This document shows, in pieces, positions 3,533 to 11,417 of a stretch of 11,417 nucleotides of DNA (position 1 is its first letter; each line of letters begins with the position of its first letter). The notes below the pieces were generated by a model that worked only from the letters and a program-made list of their open reading frames with translations, made no database searches and was not told the origin of the DNA. The stretch is from Promethearchaeota archaeon. Lineage in GTDB: Archaea; Asgardarchaeota; Lokiarchaeia; Sigyniarchaeales; SOKP01. The DNA lies in contig JBHLON010000068.1 of assembly GCA_048940445.1 (NCBI GenBank), forward strand, positions 1 through 11,417, in the 5' to 3' direction. A program made the position numbers and the translations under genes.

Positions 3533-3682
3533 TCCCTCCTCCCGGATTCTCATCCTTCCTTAATAGAAACGCAATTTGAGCCGGGGACCTCACGGTGTCG
3601 GCTGACGTATTTTCATTGGTAAAAACCTTAATACGCGATTAAATCTACAGCCGCGCGCTCTAACCAACTGAGCTAAGGAGGG
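3533..3682 (-). tRNA. tRNA-Tyr(GTA) with two introns (37/38: 3597..3644, 48 nt; 59/60: 3547..3574, 28 nt); CCA not encoded
   Basis: Manual fold: acceptor CCCTCCT/AGGAGGG + A73; D arm GCTC-AGTTGGTTA-GAGC; anticodon stem CGCGG/CCGTG with loop CT-GTA-G|A; short variable loop AGGTC; T stem CCCGG/CCGGG. Spliced length is 74 nt. C1:G72, A73 and the short variable loop are archaeal/eukaryotic Tyr features. Confidence 0.95.
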
Positions 3683-3943: not shown

Positions 3944-4453
3944 ATGAGAGAAGAAACTGACTATGCTGAAGCATTAGAAGCCTATAAAGACGATCCATAC
4001 GTAATCATTGAACCGTGGGGTAGAAGTATTGATCACCTAAGGTTAACGATTTTAGGCAAAGATGGAACTCCATATGCCAAAGGACGTTTTGTTTTTGAAG
4101 TGAAATTCCCGGAAAATTACCCATTCCAACCTCCTTATGCATATGCTGTGACTTTAATGTGGCATCCGAATATTGATTCATCAATACCTCCGGGAAAATT
4201 AAATATTTGTTTGGATTTAATTAATCCTGACCTTGTAGGAAAGGTTGATGCGGGAACAGGAGCTTCAGGGTGGACCCCCAGTAAAACCCTTACTAACATA
4301 ATAGAAGCGTTAAAGATGATGATGCATCTTGATCCTCCGTTCTTTAATCCAGGAGATCCTCTAAATCATGAGGCAGGAGAGCAGTATTTCAGAGCTTTAA
4401 AGAAGTTTGAGGCGAAAGCAGCGGCTTGGACCAAGAAATACGCTATGGACTAA
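3944..4453 (+). CDS. Ubiquitin-conjugating enzyme E2 (UBC fold), catalytically intact
   Basis: G-x-x-GTPYxxGxF, FPENYPFQPP, WHPNI (H74-P75-N76), catalytic ICLD (C89, codon 4208-4210), WTPSKTL, NPGDPLNHEA, C-terminal AAAWTKKYA. Confidence 0.97.
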   Translation: MREETDYAEALEAYKDDPYVIIEPWGRSIDHLRLTILGKDGTPYAKGRFVFEVKFPENYPFQPPYAYAVTLMWHPNIDSSIPPGKLNICLDLINPDLVGKVDAGTGASGWTPSKTLTNIIEALKMMMHLDPPFFNPGDPLNHEAGEQYFRALKKFEAKAAAWTKKYAMD

Positions 4454-5204: not shown

Positions 5205-6362
5205 TTAAATCTTTAGTATCTCATAGATTTGGCCATCAGATGCACAAAAGTATAATTCATTATTATCGTCAATTCCAAAGGAAGTAATTCCTAAATTAGT
5301 ATCTACTAGGATAGTATTGTTAGTATGATGTATTCCATCATATTCTAAAGCCCAAATTTGACCGAATTCGAAATCTGCATATATATACTTTCCAATTAAA
5401 TTTGGAAATTGGGAACCTCTATATACAAATCCTCCTGTAATAGAATGCCCGACACCGTGGTTGTATTCAAAAATTGGAAAGTCAACTTTAGTCACATTTG
5501 TGCCAAAATTATAAACATGATTCCCCTCAAACGCATTCCATCCATAATTTTTACCACTTTCTATTATATCTATCTCTTCCCATGCATCTTGACCAACATC
5601 TGCTGCCCAAAGTATACCTAGATCAAAACTAAAACGCCATGGATTTCGCAATCCGAATGCGAATATTTCTTCTTTATAGCCATCTGAATTATTGTAAAAA
5701 GGGTTATCGGTGGGGATAGTATATGGATCGCCATTATCGATATCAATTCTTAATATTGATCCTAATAAAGTTTCTCGATTTTGACCATTCCCCAATGGAT
5801 CACCAGCAGAACCTCCATCACCTAGAGCAATATATAAGTATCCATCTGGACCAAAAACAATTTGACCTCCATTATGATTAGAGTATGGTTGATTAACTTC
5901 GAGAAGAATTTTCTCGCTTGATTTATTCGCGATAGTGTTGTCTGAGTTATTAACCTTAAATCGGGAAATTATGGTGTTCCCTGCCAAGTTTGTGTAATCT
6001 AAAAAGAAGAATCCATTTTCACTAAAATTAGGATGAAAAGCTAGACCTAATAATCCTCGTTCTCCTCCACTTGATACGTGATCACTAATATCTAAAAATA
6101 AATTCTTTTGGGTATCATAATAATTATTATTAAAAGTATATATTTTACCTCCTAGTTCTAGAACAAAAAGTCTATTAGAATCATCATTTGTGTCATAAAT
6201 ACCAACAGGGAATGAAAAGCTTAATTCTGGAAAAGCAGTTCTAATATCATAGCCAAACGTTCTTGTAGTATTGAAATAGATATACCACGCAATAAATATA
6301 CCTGAAACACTAGAAATTAAAATCACAGATCCAATAATTATCCCTTTAAACTTCTTTTTCAT
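5205..6362 (-). CDS. PQQ-dependent glucose/sorbosone dehydrogenase family (GSDH beta-propeller), N-terminal membrane anchor
   Basis: GERGLLGLAFHP, NHNGGQIVFGPDGYLYIALGDGG, GSILRID, GLRNPWRFSFD, DVGQDAWEEID, NYGW, SITGGFVYRG; MKKK plus a hydrophobic N-terminal helix. Confidence 0.95.
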   Translation of the reverse strand: MKKKFKGIIIGSVILISSVSGIFIAWYIYFNTTRTFGYDIRTAFPELSFSFPVGIYDTNDDSNRLFVLELGGKIYTFNNNYYDTQKNLFLDISDHVSSGGERGLLGLAFHPNFSENGFFFLDYTNLAGNTIISRFKVNNSDNTIANKSSEKILLEVNQPYSNHNGGQIVFGPDGYLYIALGDGGSAGDPLGNGQNRETLLGSILRIDIDNGDPYTIPTDNPFYNNSDGYKEEIFAFGLRNPWRFSFDLGILWAADVGQDAWEEIDIIESGKNYGWNAFEGNHVYNFGTNVTKVDFPIFEYNHGVGHSITGGFVYRGSQFPNLIGKYIYADFEFGQIWALEYDGIHHTNNTILVDTNLGITSFGIDDNNELYFCASDGQIYEILKI

Positions 6363-6587
6363 TAAATACCCTTAGCATATAGTTTCTTGGTTAAAAGAGA
6401 AGCAAAAATTGTATTTTTATCTTTTATCTATGATTAAAAAATAAATCGTCATTTACTATTATATTTTAAAGTGAATTTATGAAAATTAGTTCCATATTAA
6501 AGACAAAAATGGAAGTGAATTTTTATAATAAGAACTTCTATTCTAATAAAATTCTAATTCTCATAAAATCAATAAAAAGTGATTAAG

Positions 6588-6662
6588 ATGGGAGATTTTA
6601 AAAAAACGAAAAAAGTCTTTGGAATTGTTTGGATAATAGGGTTAGTATTCTTATGGCTTTAG
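6588..6662 (+). CDS. Possible 24-aa single-TM microprotein or gene remnant (MGDFKKTKKVFGIVWIIGLVFLWL)
   Basis: Manual translation; basic N-terminus then a hydrophobic stretch; SD-like AGTGAT just upstream; lies in an otherwise empty 450-bp gap. Confidence 0.3.
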   Translation: MGDFKKTKKVFGIVWIIGLVFLWL

Positions 6663-6814
6663 GATACTTTATATTAATGAGAAAAAGAGAGATAAAAAAT
6701 AACTATGCTGATATTATATTTATTCACTTTTTTTTCCATAAAGGATATAATTAAAATATAGATTTTAGATAAATGTAAATAAAAGTTTAAAATCAAAACT
6801 AATTGGCTGCATTG

Positions 6815-8185
6815 ATGAAAACACAATTAAAAATTCTATTTCCCTTAATAATTTTTACAGTAATATTTCTCTCTTTTACACAAAATTTTAAAAATCTTAA
6901 TATAGATACAGATATCTTCCATTACAATTCCCAATATAATATAAATTATTCTAATCTTGAAAACTTGAGAAGTTCAGCTATATGGGGTAAAATCCATATT
7001 AAAAATAACTGGACAGCTACTAAGGAGGCGGGAATATGTACTGGAAATGGCACTTTTACTGATCCATACATCATACAGGATTTAATAATAGATGGAGGAA
7101 ATCTAGGAAATTGTATTAAGATTGAAAATTCCAGTGTTTATTTTAAAATTGAAAATTGTACATTTTACAATTCAGGAGGAATCTATGGTAATGCAGGAAT
7201 CTTTTTATCTAATGTTAATAATTCCCAATTAATTAATAACAATTGCTCGTTTAATTTTCATGGAATGTTTTTATCTGATTGTTATAATAATACCGTTTTG
7301 GGTAACATCTTAGATAAAAATAACTGGGGTATTAATTCTTTCTCCGGTATTAATAATAATTTCTCACAAAATACTATTAATAACAGTCTTTGGGACGGTA
7401 TAAATTTATTTAATGCTCAATTTGCATATATTTCAGACAATAACATAATTGGCAATATAGATGGAATTGGTTTATTATTGGGTTTTAATAATACCATTTA
7501 TGCTAATACAGTTAATAAAAATGAGATCGGACTTTATATCGATAGTCTCAACAATATTATTTCAGGAAATATAGCTATTAATAATGATATGCATGGTATC
7601 TTATTATATGGCGAGAATGATATCATTTCTGGAAACACAGCGAATTATAATGGAGACAGCGGGATAGTATTATCAAATTGTAATAAAAGCAAAATTATCG
7701 GGAATATTGCAAATTACAATACCAATTGGGGGATAGCTTTAAGCACTGGTAATAATAACAGCATATTGGTTAATAATTTAAGTAATAATGATGCAGGAAT
7801 ATACTTAGAATTTGCTAATCAAAATAATTTATCGGGCAACTTTGCAAATACTAATAATGGATATGGAATCTTCTTAACTTTTAGTGATTCGAATATAATT
7901 TCGGGAAATACTGCTAATAACAATAAATATGGCATATTTTTACATATTAGTGACAATAATATTATTTCCGGAAACACCTTAATAGGTAATATAGAATGCA
8001 TTTTTGAAGAGAATTGTCAAGGAAATAAATTTAGTGATAACGGTGATTGTATTTATGGGCAAAGTGGAAATGGTAGATTTCCTATTGAAGTATTATTATC
8101 CTCTATATTTATTGGAGTAGGGATTTTGATAAGCATAGTTCTTATTTTCTACATTGTCAATAAACGGAAAAGAATAAAACAATAA
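6815..8185 (+). CDS. NosD/CASH right-handed parallel beta-helix cell-surface protein, paralogue 1
   Basis: N-terminal signal/TM; GNGTxxDPYII motif; 22-23 aa coils (SGNTANNNxYGIxL..SxxNxI); C-terminal TM plus basic tail; many N-x-S/T sequons. The ORF track starts at TTG 6803; ATG 6815 is more likely. Confidence 0.92.
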   Translation: MKTQLKILFPLIIFTVIFLSFTQNFKNLNIDTDIFHYNSQYNINYSNLENLRSSAIWGKIHIKNNWTATKEAGICTGNGTFTDPYIIQDLIIDGGNLGNCIKIENSSVYFKIENCTFYNSGGIYGNAGIFLSNVNNSQLINNNCSFNFHGMFLSDCYNNTVLGNILDKNNWGINSFSGINNNFSQNTINNSLWDGINLFNAQFAYISDNNIIGNIDGIGLLLGFNNTIYANTVNKNEIGLYIDSLNNIISGNIAINNDMHGILLYGENDIISGNTANYNGDSGIVLSNCNKSKIIGNIANYNTNWGIALSTGNNNSILVNNLSNNDAGIYLEFANQNNLSGNFANTNNGYGIFLTFSDSNIISGNTANNNKYGIFLHISDNNIISGNTLIGNIECIFEENCQGNKFSDNGDCIYGQSGNGRFPIEVLLSSIFIGVGILISIVLIFYIVNKRKRIKQ

Positions 8186-8199
8186 AGCAATCATAAAAT

Positions 8200-9591
8200 A
8201 TGAAACAAATCAAATTAAAATTTACAACAATTCTAATCTTTATATTATTAACTTTAGGGATTATATTCTCCACTTTTACTCTAACTATTAAATTTAATGG
8301 CGCGATTTTCTCTCAAAGTTTAAAAAGTGATAAGAATCTCTCATATAATGAAAATTTGAAAAGTTCGGTTATATGGGGAAAAATTCATATTGATAATAAT
8401 TGGTCAGATGCGGAGATCATGGGTATATGTACCGGAAATGGTACTCCTAATGATCCATACATTATGAAAGATTTAGTAATAGATGGGGGAAATCTAGGAA
8501 CTTGTATCTTGATAGAAAATTCAAGAGCATACTTTAAAATTGAAAACTGTACATTTTATCATTCGGGCTATGTAGGAGGACCTGATTATATGGTGGGGAT
8601 CACATTATCTAACGTTACTAACTCTCTATTGATTAGTAACAATTGTTCAAATAATTTTTATGGGATTAGTTTATACAATAGTCATTATAACCAAATTATG
8701 GACAACATGGTAACCAATAACCAATTAGGAATAGATTTAGAAAGCTGTGATAATATAACTATCTCGAGAAATAGAGCAGATAATAATTCGGTTGGAATAA
8801 ATGTCTTCGATGGTCAGAACTTTAACATTTCAGGAAATACAGCAAATAATAATTCTAGATACGGGATTTATTTAAGGTCTAGTAGTAATAATATCATTTC
8901 GGAAAACACGGCGAATAATAATACTGCATTTGGGATATATTTAAGGAATAGTCTTTATGATGATATTTCCAAAAATACAGCAAATTATAATGTAGTGTAT
9001 GGAATTTACGTAAGAAACAGTAGGTATAATAATCTCTCGAAAAATACTGCAAACTGCAATTTAGTACATGGAATACTATTACAAGATTGTAGATATGGTG
9101 ATATTATGGACAATAACGCAAGTTTTAACATCTCCTGGGGGATAGGGTTATCTACTAGTAATAATACCAACTTTCAAGGAAACTGTGCTAATAATAATGA
9201 TGTTGGACTAAATTTACAATTTAATTATAATAATCTTATTTCTGGAAACAGAGCAAATTTTAATCATCATTATGGGATTTATTTATATTATGGTGATTCG
9301 AATACAATTTCGGGAAATACAGCTAATAACAACATTTATGGAATTTTTCTACAACGAAGTGATACCAATATTATTTCAGGAAACATTCTTTTAGGAAATA
9401 CTAAATGTATCTTTGAGGAAGATTGTCAAGGAAATGAATTTAGCGACAATGGTGCTTGTACTTATGGAGAAGGTGAAGATGGTCAAAATAATATTGATAT
9501 TTTCATTGTCATTTTGAATATTGAAATAGGTATTTTGGTCATTGCTTTAGTTATTCTGACAATTATTTCTAAGAGGAAAGGTAAAAAATAA
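8200..9591 (+). CDS. NosD/CASH right-handed parallel beta-helix cell-surface protein, paralogue 2
   Basis: Same architecture; shares IWGKIHIxNNW, GICTGNGTxxDPYI, YFKIENCTFY and CIFEExCQGNxFSDNGxCxYG with paralogue 1; starts 14 nt after it. Confidence 0.93.
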   Translation: MKQIKLKFTTILIFILLTLGIIFSTFTLTIKFNGAIFSQSLKSDKNLSYNENLKSSVIWGKIHIDNNWSDAEIMGICTGNGTPNDPYIMKDLVIDGGNLGTCILIENSRAYFKIENCTFYHSGYVGGPDYMVGITLSNVTNSLLISNNCSNNFYGISLYNSHYNQIMDNMVTNNQLGIDLESCDNITISRNRADNNSVGINVFDGQNFNISGNTANNNSRYGIYLRSSSNNIISENTANNNTAFGIYLRNSLYDDISKNTANYNVVYGIYVRNSRYNNLSKNTANCNLVHGILLQDCRYGDIMDNNASFNISWGIGLSTSNNTNFQGNCANNNDVGLNLQFNYNNLISGNRANFNHHYGIYLYYGDSNTISGNTANNNIYGIFLQRSDTNIISGNILLGNTKCIFEEDCQGNEFSDNGACTYGEGEDGQNNIDIFIVILNIEIGILVIALVILTIISKRKGKK

Positions 9592-10322: not shown

Positions 10323-11153
10323 TTAACCTCTATCTGGACCAGCAATTGCGATCACTCCCTCAGTTTGATTGTATCCTTTTCCATGTATCATCCTAATTGA
10401 ATAAAAATATTCATTTAGATTAAACTCAGAAGCTAATCTTAATGATAATTGATTTTTTTCCAGCATTCCAATACGAATTCTTTTGTACTCAATTTTATTA
10501 ATTAAATTTTGAAGAAGTAAATGAGGTTTAGATTCTTTAGGATCGATTATCCAAGGTCCAATGAAGATACAATCCTCTTTTGGAATTCCCATTATAAAGC
10601 CTTTCAATTTGTTTTGTTGATTTAAAACATAGCATAAATCGGGATGAAGCAAAAATCTCCTTTTTAATAGGAAGGATCTATTTCCCCTAAAATATTTCCG
10701 ATCTAATTTGACTACTCGCATTAAATCTTTTTTAGTCATTAATTGTACATACTCAACAATTTTTAGATGCAATTTTCCTTCTAATCTAAGTGAGCGGCAA
10801 ACTGGCCTAAATTTGAATTCCTCATAAAGAGGACATATTTCTGGAACAGCATCTAGCATAATAGATTTTACCCCTAATGATAATAGATATTTCATTGCAT
10901 GTTTGATTAGCTTTCTTCCTATTCCTTGATTTCTAAATTGTTCTAAGACAATTAAATTTCCGATAAATCCAAATCTGCCATAATTCGCGGTTGAGATAAT
11001 TCCTTCGAGAGTTCCATTAGAATCTGAAATAAAGAATCCTTCAGGAGAAAATAAGAAGAGATCTTCTAATTCTTCCCTAGAAGTACCCCAACCTTCAAGT
11101 TCTGTAAGCTTAAGAGCAAAATCTAATTCATTAGATAAAAGATTTCTAATCAT
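10323..11153 (-). CDS. GNAT family N-acetyltransferase (two-domain, YitH-like C-terminal half)
   Basis: Motif A FIGNLIVLEQFRNQGIGRKLI, LDA...PLYEEFKF; second domain LDRKYFRGNRS...IGPW; C-terminal GPDRG. Confidence 0.92.
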   Translation of the reverse strand: MIRNLLSNELDFALKLTELEGWGTSREELEDLFLFSPEGFFISDSNGTLEGIISTANYGRFGFIGNLIVLEQFRNQGIGRKLIKHAMKYLLSLGVKSIMLDAVPEICPLYEEFKFRPVCRSLRLEGKLHLKIVEYVQLMTKKDLMRVVKLDRKYFRGNRSFLLKRRFLLHPDLCYVLNQQNKLKGFIMGIPKEDCIFIGPWIIDPKESKPHLLLQNLINKIEYKRIRIGMLEKNQLSLRLASEFNLNEYFYSIRMIHGKGYNQTEGVIAIAGPDRG

Positions 11154-11207: not shown

Positions 11208-11417
11208 TTACATATATGTTATTATTACATTATATTTTTTGATATCTGATTCTACTTTTGCCTTTCCTAGCGGTGTTAATGTAACTATATCATTATTTCT
11301 TATTTTTAAAGAAGTTAATTTAAGGTTAGGGTCTTTCATTGAAGGAATATATGGATTCCAATATATTTCTTTTGAAGCAGGATTAGTAATCATCCACAAG
11401 ATTGGCTCTAAGGAATG
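11208..11417 (-). CDS. 3' end (69 aa) of a gene entering from the right edge; resembles the C-terminal ubiquitin-fold domain of E1 enzymes (tentative)
   Basis: The frame is open to the window edge: HSLEPILWMITNPASKEIYWNPYIPSMKDPNLKLTSLKIRNNDIVTLTPLGKAKVESDIKKYNVIITYM*. The TTG start in the ORF track is probably internal. Coding is likely; the product call is by motif resemblance only. Confidence 0.55.
   Translation of the reverse strand, partial: HSLEPILWMITNPASKEIYWNPYIPSMKDPNLKLTSLKIRNNDIVTLTPLGKAKVESDIKKYNVIITYM

Follow-up and report, generated by a model that had tools for sequence, protein, structure and literature searches.

The window analyzed here is the whole of an 11,417-nt stretch of DNA (contig JBHLON010000068.1 of the Promethearchaeota archaeon assembly GCA_048940445.1), and it carries a stand-alone gene for a ubiquitin-conjugating enzyme (E2) with one insertion on either side of the catalytic Cys. 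Our data support that this E2 is probably a competent conjugating enzyme of a ubiquitin-like protein (Ubl) pathway that is restricted to Lokiarchaeia and separate from the operon-encoded system of ubiquitin (Ub), activating enzyme (E1), E2, JAMM, and RING proteins. Asgard ubiquitin systems serve to reconstruct the rise of eukaryotic ubiquitylation and, to our knowledge, have so far mostly been described as single operons or as clusters linked to ESCRT. Asgard E1, E2, and Ub genes and links between ubiquitin E2 variant (UEV) proteins and ESCRT have been reported (PMC9192718), and the ubiquitin system of Caldiarchaeum has been reconstituted (PMC5654768). In literature searches, we found no description of the loop-bearing E2 subfamily, its partner E1, or the Ubl considered here.

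The features of the E2 gene and of the partner E1 gene in the window are as follows.
3944 to 4453, forward strand: E2 gene, encoding 169 amino acids (aa) with a ubiquitin-conjugating (UBC) fold; stand-alone copy of a Lokiarchaeia-specific loop-bearing subfamily.
3947 to 3994, forward strand: N-terminal helix 1 region (R2 to D17), acidic with a net charge of −5; conserved motif MREExDYxEA; helical at residues 2 to 13 according to DSSP.
4163 to 4171, forward strand: HPN motif (H74-P75-N76); H in 131, P in 130, and N in 130 of 131 orthologues.
4172 to 4207, forward strand: loop A (IDSSIPPGKLNI), the 12 residues from HPN to Cys; 5 more than in Ubc1/UBE2D.
4208 to 4210, forward strand: TGT codon of the catalytic Cys89, which aligns with the catalytic Cys of Ubc1/UBE2D; C in 129 of 131 orthologues.
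4211 to 4270, forward strand: loop B (LDLINPDLVGKVDAGTGASG), the 20 residues from Cys89 to Trp110, including K100; 13 more than in Ubc1/UBE2D.
4271 to 4279, forward strand: W110-T-P, corresponding to the canonical W-S-P (RING/E1-contact loop); W in 131 and P112 in 130 of 131 orthologues.
11208 to 11417, reverse strand: C-terminal 69 residues of the partner E1, likely its ubiquitin-fold domain (UFD); the rest is on contig C138, linked by an exact 77-nt overlap.

The E2 open reading frame (ORF) is predicted to encode an intact, catalytically competent enzyme. It matches the Pfam family UQ_con (PF00179) with an E value of 1.8e-25, and a phmmer search against PDB sequences gave yeast Ubc1 (2.6e-19), the rice UBC core, Ubc4, UBE2T, and UBE2D as the best matches, with E values ranging from 1e-19 to 1e-15 for Ubc1, UBE2D, and UBE2T. 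The HPN motif, the catalytic Cys, and the downstream Trp-x-Pro of the UBC superfamily are all present, with H74, P75, N76, C89, W110, and P112 aligning to Ubc1/UBE2D, and the interval from 4163 to 4273 extends exactly from H74 to W110 (codon at 4271 to 4273). F61 (in YPF) and P112 (after the Trp), which occupy what we take to be the positions used by canonical E2s for RING contact, are present as well. An AlphaFold2 (AF2) model built from 35 orthologues has a mean predicted local distance difference test (pLDDT) score of 91.7, with residues 95 to 109 alone dropping to 63 to 78. Foldseek and VIA-align ranked UBE2K, UBE2E2, UBE2D, UBE2T, and UBE2N at the top with Z scores of about 20; in the VIA alignments, UBE2K had a Z score of 20.4 and a root mean square deviation (rmsd) of 1.8 over 148 residues, and UBE2D2 had a Z score of 20.2 and an rmsd of 1.6 over 144 residues. 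The Pfam, AF2, and VIA results all support that the protein has the UBC alpha/beta fold. Because the structural alignments to the top E2s cover 144 to 149 of the 169 residues, the unaligned part corresponds to the two insertions.

The core of the window E2 resembles those of class I E2s (Ubc1/UBE2K, Ubc4/UBE2D, UBE2T, and UBE2E), which are its best sequence and structural matches (Z about 20, 30 to 33% identity) and with which it shares the HPN, Cys, WxP, and PxxPP motifs as well as the F61 and P112 positions; unlike these E2s, it has insertions of 5 and 13 residues flanking the Cys, and its helix 1 is acidic while theirs is basic. In HMMER alignments to yeast Ubc1, Ubc4, and the rice UBC core, the insertions show as gaps of 5 residues ahead of the Cys and of 13 residues between LDI(L/I) and the Trp; UBE2T has a 4-residue insertion at the second site only (spacing 11). 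The original prediction, which had been made from the sequence alone, described an E2 with 12 residues between HPN and C89, 20 residues between C89 and W110, an acidic helix 1, K100, and a C-L-D motif. We recovered all of these, the two spacings in both the translation and the HMMER gaps, and the acidic helix with a net charge of −5 in the window E2 and of −4 to −5 over residues 1 to 17 in most orthologues, in which R2 and D6 are nearly invariant.

A word-indexed search returned 86 relatives, among which the full-length ones are 169 to 172 aa long and come from metagenome-assembled genomes (MAGs) labelled Lokiarchaeota/Promethearchaeota, Helarchaeota, and Hodarchaeota; public records label orthologues just as ubiquitin-conjugating enzyme E2. 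Scanning species-representative genomes, we identified 138 loci, and the best 80 of these, to which all counts of loci below refer, encode E2s that are 82 to 98% identical to the window E2. In a scan of 400 genomes of the phylum, orthologue-level E2 matches (E below about 1e-70, 60 to 100% identity) were limited to families f1 to f7, i.e., the window's own class, Lokiarchaeia, while the rest of the phylum gave paralogue-level matches only (42 to 46% identity). The partner E1 and the candidate Ubl described below share this range, occurring in families f1 to f7 and in none of the rest of the phylum.

Contig C138 ends with 77 nt that are identical to the right end of the window in reverse complement, and joining the two yields a single 524-aa E1 ORF (window 11208-11417, reverse strand, plus G000:C138:16599-18040), placing C138 and the window contig (C52) next to each other in the genome. 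The E1 gene lies about 6.8 kb downstream of the E2 gene and is convergent to it. In the closest relative (L014), one contig has the same order as the joined contigs, i.e., E2, NosD-like, GNAT, E1, giant MIT/TPR, and RACo-like genes. Using tblastn, we found E1 less than 10 kb from E2 in 66 of the 80 loci, nearly always in convergent orientation and located downstream of the MIT/TPR gene, and at two loci (L024 and L034) the stop codons of E1 and E2 are just 27 to 40 nt apart. The full-length orthologue L014:13509-15080 matches ThiF (PF00899) with an E value of 1.1e-58 and an insertion of roughly 170 residues, and among PDB sequences the active adenylation domains of UBA1, UBA7, UBA6, and UBA3 match it best. 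The alignment pairs the invariant C263 in AACTLKGLPRNRNHC with Cys632 of human UBA1, which we take to be the catalytic residue. Residues 430 to 524 of the E1 model as a beta-alpha-beta domain (pLDDT 77 to 92), and alignments of the E1 model to SAE2, UBA1, UBA6, and UBA7 reach their C-terminal UFDs, with large rmsd. Orthologues of the E1 are full-length in families f1 to f3 and shorter (414 to 453 aa) in f5 to f7.

The partner E1 is eukaryote-like. Similarly to UBA3/UBA2-type E1s, it has one adenylation domain, in which a CxxC...CxxC zinc site is present, a C-T-(L/I)-x-x-x-P motif that contains the catalytic Cys, and, in the model, a predicted C-terminal beta-grasp domain where the E2-recruiting UFD sits. 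Unlike UBA3 and UBA2, its best sequence match is the active adenylation domain of UBA1, UBA7, and UBA6, it has a long helical insertion at residues 174 to 240, and we see no sign of a separate regulatory subunit.

Directly upstream of the E1 gene and on the same strand, a gene for a 1648-aa protein (G000:C138:11475-16421; L094) is found, and this arrangement recurs in 56 of the 80 loci. The protein, which is longer in some relatives, has two N-terminal MIT domains (PF04212, 5.4e-20) and TPR repeats and had no match in a PDB sequence search. MIT domains are known from ESCRT-III-binding proteins, and a link between the Ubl pathway and ESCRT through this protein is conceivable.

The genome carries three E1/E2 sets, i.e., the C68/C70 operon, the C110 cluster, and the window E2-E1 pair. 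Encoded in the C68/C70 operon are two STAG-terminated Ubls, an E1, an E2 whose helix 1 is basic, a JAMM protease, and a membrane protein with a zinc finger; since the end of C68 and the start of C70 share one E1 ORF (peptide MAFKEKFDRDPN), this is a Ub-E1-E2-JAMM operon split by a contig break. The C110 cluster encodes a JAMM protein, an E1, an E2-like protein, and a Ubl. The window E2 is not part of a Ub-E1-E2-JAMM-RING cluster: E1 alone is nearby, with unrelated genes in between, and the Ubl, E3-like, and JAMM genes are on other contigs. A fifth Ubl is encoded by a lone gene (G000:C62:34908-35162); it is 84 aa long, ends in QAGGI, and matches PF00240 with an E value of 4.7e-10, and this C62 Ubl and its relatives end in GG or GG plus one residue.

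Several lines of evidence connect the C62 Ubl to the window E2. Among the five Ubls of the genome, it is the sole match to the Ubl domains of E2-like relatives; these domains are fused C-terminally to, or inserted in, P0115, P0113, P0105, P0100, P0076, and P0089 (E values of 1e-14 to 6e-4). Most of these Ubl-fused forms, one of which is from a Helarchaeota MAG, no longer have the catalytic Cys, with F, Y, N, or H in its place, and are therefore UEV-like. On contig C630 of genome G144 (L095), three genes are adjacent: one for a C62-type Ubl with GG as its exact end, one for a protein of 379 aa that has a Ubl domain at its C-terminus, and one for a loop-bearing paralogue of the E2 (T100). Finally, the range of the C62 Ubl equals that of the E2 (68 to 100% identity in f1 to f7). 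Based on these relationships, the C62 Ubl is likely the window E2's own Ubl. In one genome of family f7 (G128; L104), an operon encodes a UEV/RWD protein that carries a zinc finger at its C-terminus, an E1 of 414 aa, the orthologous E2, and a JAMM protease. The orthologue of this UEV/RWD gene in the window's own genome (C16:11512-13182) encodes a 556-aa protein with UQ_con/RWD-like domains and the finger, and this multi-UEV/RWD protein with an RBX1-like zinc finger and the JAMM protease are candidates for the E3 and the deconjugase. The original prediction had proposed that the E2 has its own E1/Ubl specificity; the E1 part stands by conserved synteny, while a Ubl of its own is only likely.

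We considered the alternative that the window E2 has no pathway of its own but serves as an additional E2 supplied with ubiquitin by the operon E1 (C68/C70). In eukaryotic cells, many E2s are served by one E1. The window contains no Ubl gene, and the window E2 belongs to the same archaeal E2 clade as operon-type E2s, i.e., those of Caldiarchaeum subterraneum (PMC5654768), of Asgard clusters (PMC9192718), and of the window's own genome (C70:737-1264). It shares with them the insertion before the Cys and L-x-L-(I/V)-(N/D)-P-x-x-(V/I)-G after it, and the operon-type and window E2s are about 38 to 41% identical. However, a different full-length E1 is syntenic with the window E2 in 66 of the 80 loci and across rearrangements, and the fusions together with the one adjacency tie the subfamily to a different Ubl. 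Moreover, the operon-type E2, which occurs across the Asgard families sampled, has a basic helix 1, the opposite charge, and a Cys-Trp spacing of 14; the window subfamily, unlike it, is found only in Lokiarchaeia, is dispersed in the genome, and goes together with an E1 that is longer and with another Ubl. That two E2s of one cell carry opposite charges on helix 1 suggests that the two pathways are insulated. We therefore regard the sharing of the operon E1 as unlikely.

Several observations weigh against a separate pathway. None of the RNA runs checked for the locus contained it. The C62 Ubl is encoded adjacent to neither E2 nor E1 in its own genome, and its assignment comes from fusions, one paralogue adjacency, and co-distribution across related, non-independent genomes. 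In other relatives at the class level, E1 and E2 are split between contigs, the operon that includes E3-like and JAMM genes was found in one genome only (G128), and the finger of the C16 protein matches the RBX1 RING-H2 weakly (E value of 0.016). The AF2 model of the E1 is poor overall (pLDDT 61), so that a UFD is consistent with the data rather than demonstrated, and the C-terminal 95 residues of the E1 have a mean net charge of about −2, with no clear complementarity to the acidic helix 1. Loop B, moreover, is the least confident part of the E2 model (pLDDT 63 to 78).

The two loops beside Cys89 were compared by mean column identity over 131 distinct orthologue sequences, which is also the sample for the orthologue counts above. 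Mean identity is 0.955 for loop A (residues 77 to 88), 0.94 for loop B (90 to 109), and 0.92 for the insertion at 95 to 108, compared with 0.82 outside residues 74 to 112. Because the loops are retained in 131 distinct orthologues, they reflect neither chance nor a local error, and the concern that the loop might be variable or absent in close orthologues did not materialize, as both loops exceed the rest of the protein in conservation. An alternative reading is that the loops decorate the surface in a lineage-specific way, serving stability or some unrelated interaction and taking no part in charging or transfer. Loop B is Gly-rich and modelled with lower confidence, the length of the loop differs among distant paralogues, and it is absent from forms with an inserted Ubl. 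But no other segment of the protein is as well conserved among the orthologues as the loops are, and both directly flank the catalytic Cys; a purely decorative role consequently appears improbable to us.

For the window E2 as the conjugating enzyme of a separate Ubl pathway, we infer thioester transfer, the choice of Ubl, and the function of the loops as follows. The 524-aa E1, with its adenylation domain, CxxC...CxxC, CTLKGLP Cys, and predicted C-terminal ubiquitin-fold domain, would adenylate the 84-aa GG-ending Ubl and form a thioester with it; its C-terminal domain would recruit the E2 via the acidic helix 1, and the Ubl would then be passed to Cys89, with H74-P75-N76 in their usual catalytic role. 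By analogy with the known location of L7, loop B, which has a short helix at residues 95 to 98 in the AF2 model, would lie lid-like above the active-site cleft, and loops A and B together may form an enlarged rim or lid of the cleft around Cys89. The most likely role of the loops would be in pathway specificity or gating, by contacting the Cys domain of the cognate E1, the Ubl tail, or the acceptor. A more far-reaching version, which we consider quite doubtful, holds that the E2, the UFD-carrying E1, the 84-aa Ubl, and the multi-UEV/RBX1-like protein form a complete second ubiquitylation pathway in Lokiarchaeia, insulated from the operon pathway by the reversed charge of helix 1, in which the Gly-rich loop takes over the function of the Cdc34/Ubc7 acidic loop and positions an acceptor Ubl for chain building. 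If true, archaea would have independently invented a processive E2 that builds chains with the help of a loop.

K100 had been proposed as a possible auto-conjugation site. It is a Lys on a flexible loop beside the catalytic Cys and is K in 121 of the 131 orthologues; however, it is R in 6 and T or Q among others, and in the loop-bearing paralogue adjoining Ubl genes it is T. The replacement by R suggests that the positive charge, rather than the acceptor amine, is what is kept, and these substitutions weaken the proposal to the point where we consider a regulatory auto-conjugation site in loop B very unlikely.

The origin of the loops was traced in relatives of the E2. An exhaustive search of representatives gave distant archaeal relatives at 36 to 55% identity and then canonical E2s; the lower-ranked representatives mostly have HPN-Cys/Cys-Trp spacings of 7/7 (UBE2D-like) or 7/11 (UBE2T-like). 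In an alignment of 27 sequences (the window E2, 25 archaeal relatives, and the second E2 of its own genome on C70), the HPN-Cys segment is lengthened to 12 to 17 residues in the whole archaeal group, including the C70-type E2, and loop B's first half, L-(D/A)-L-(I/V)-(N/D)-P-x-x-(V/I)-G, is also common to the whole group; the window E2 has both this lengthened segment and the L-x-L-(I/V)-(N/D)-P after the Cys. In a quick maximum-likelihood (ML) tree of 89 rows, from which gappy columns and with them most loop columns were removed and in which the canonical-spacing representatives are unnamed, 29 archaeal rows with the insertion before the Cys split from 58 canonical-spacing representatives with a Shimodaira-Hasegawa-like approximate likelihood ratio test (SH-aLRT) value of 87, which is below the cut-off of 95 for strong support. 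This split supports a distinct Asgard E2 subfamily; the original prediction had spoken of a distinct Asgard E2 class. Loop B consists of two halves, the clade-wide LDLINPDLVG and the subfamily-specific, Gly-rich KVDAGTGASG. The first half is present both in the operon-type E2 (G000:C70:737-1264) and in the corresponding E2s of other Asgard families (L098-L102), all with a Cys-Trp spacing of 14, while the Gly-rich K-V-D-x-x-T-G-A-S is confined to the window subfamily and a few close relatives and brings the spacing to 20. Because the sister archaeal E2s have the 14-residue spacing, the 20-residue spacing arose within the archaeal clade. Alignment thus points to an assembly of loop B in two steps inside this clade: loop A together with the initial half of loop B (L-D-L-I-N-P-x-L-V-G) would have been inherited from the common ancestor of Asgard E2s, and the Gly-rich second half (K-V-D-x-x-T-G-A-S) would have been added in the window subfamily.

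Two relatives of the E2 have additional C-terminal or fused regions. P0095, which keeps the Cys, is fused to a TIR domain (TIR_2, 1.7e-15), and P0088 has a weak HEPN/PaREP1-like C-terminal region; these relatives hint at defence-type uses of the same E2 clade.

The position of loop B brings to mind the acidic loop of Ubc7/UBE2G and Cdc34/UBE2R (family 3), with which it was compared by means of the published consensus (PMC3399832). The family-3 loop is a 12/13-residue insertion downstream of the catalytic Cys with the consensus ILHxPG-DPxuhEhxxERW, in which P96, G97, and P99 as well as the acidic D98, E103, and E107 are invariant, and in UBE2G2 the Cys and Trp have the numbers 89 and 110 (PMC3399832). 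As predicted from the sequence, the window E2 has its second insertion at the L7 site and a Cys89-Trp110 spacing identical to that of UBE2G2; since the numbers of Cys and Trp are the same, so are the position and length of the insertion. Like family 3, it thus has a 12- to 13-residue insertion just after the catalytic Cys, and the loop is strongly conserved within its own family. Unlike family 3, it has D96, L97, V98, G99, A103, and A107 at the six invariant loop positions; its loop is Gly-rich, with one Lys and two Asp and without the acidic/hydrophobic alternation; and it also has the insertion before the Cys and a core that, among the matches listed, is nearest to Ubc1/UBE2K, UBE2D, and UBE2T. 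The loop consensus of the 131 orthologues, NPDLVGKVDASTGASG, does not conform to that of family 3. No family-3 chain was among the best 60 sequence or the best 50 structural matches listed, and no family-3 E2 was among the best 150 representatives.

The original prediction had left open whether the E2 is a precursor or a convergent analogue of loop-bearing E2s. The missing family-3 invariants and the two-step archaeal assembly speak against a precursor, and a convergent loop is possible. Based on the missing invariants, the two-step assembly, and the lack of family-3 chains among the best matches listed, loop B appears to be an analogue and not a homologue of the Ubc7/Cdc34 acidic loop, convergence being far more likely than ancestry, and it is best explained as having been inserted independently at a site known to be a hot spot, at which UBE2T also has a short insertion. 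That loop B is homologous to the acidic loop and the E2 a family-3 precursor or early branch with the same loop-assisted chain building, as the insertion site and Cys89-Trp110 spacing of UBE2G2, the argument for an ancient acidic loop (PMC3399832), and the weak RBX1-like RING match in the candidate E3 would allow, is highly improbable given that P96, G97, D98, P99, E103, and E107 are all absent in register, that the top matches listed are to Ubc1/UBE2K, UBE2D, UBE2T, and UBE2E, and that the 20-residue spacing arose within an archaeal clade whose sister E2s have 14 residues.

Between E2 and E1, the window encodes a glucose/sorbosone dehydrogenase and has two tandem genes for NosD-like beta-helix membrane-anchored proteins (5205-9591). 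The dehydrogenase and NosD-like genes are found at that place in 0 and 9, respectively, of the 80 loci, and they are an insertion into an otherwise conserved neighbourhood of HDAC, PDCD5-like, E2, HAD, and E1 genes. Some E2 orthologues (L084:~1835-1864, L085, and L080:~10388-10417) contain exact 30-nt in-frame inserts with stop codons, which sit after codon 64 or codon 129; the window copy has none. The E1 genes of L062, L078, and L085 are also 30 nt longer, with stops. The inserts hold hairpins and, together with their flanks, fold in a helix-bulge-helix-like manner (z −2.1 to −4.1), and they look like tRNA-type mini-introns in mRNAs. In the window, ARAGORN detected no tRNA; such a result would be expected if the tRNA-Tyr with two introns that had earlier been proposed upstream of E2 (3533-3682) were disrupted by its introns.

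Our results suggest that Lokiarchaeia carry at least one further E1-E2-Ubl set, which is dispersed in the genome and highly conserved. The window E2 is remodelled on both sides of the active site, and the charge of its helix 1 is opposite to that of the operon E2 of the same cell. If confirmed, this would provide an uncomplicated natural example of a prokaryote with two insulated Ubl pathways, as well as an independent long loop-7 insertion that could be used to test what such loops do generally. With small proteins and named partners, the cascade is open to direct reconstitution.

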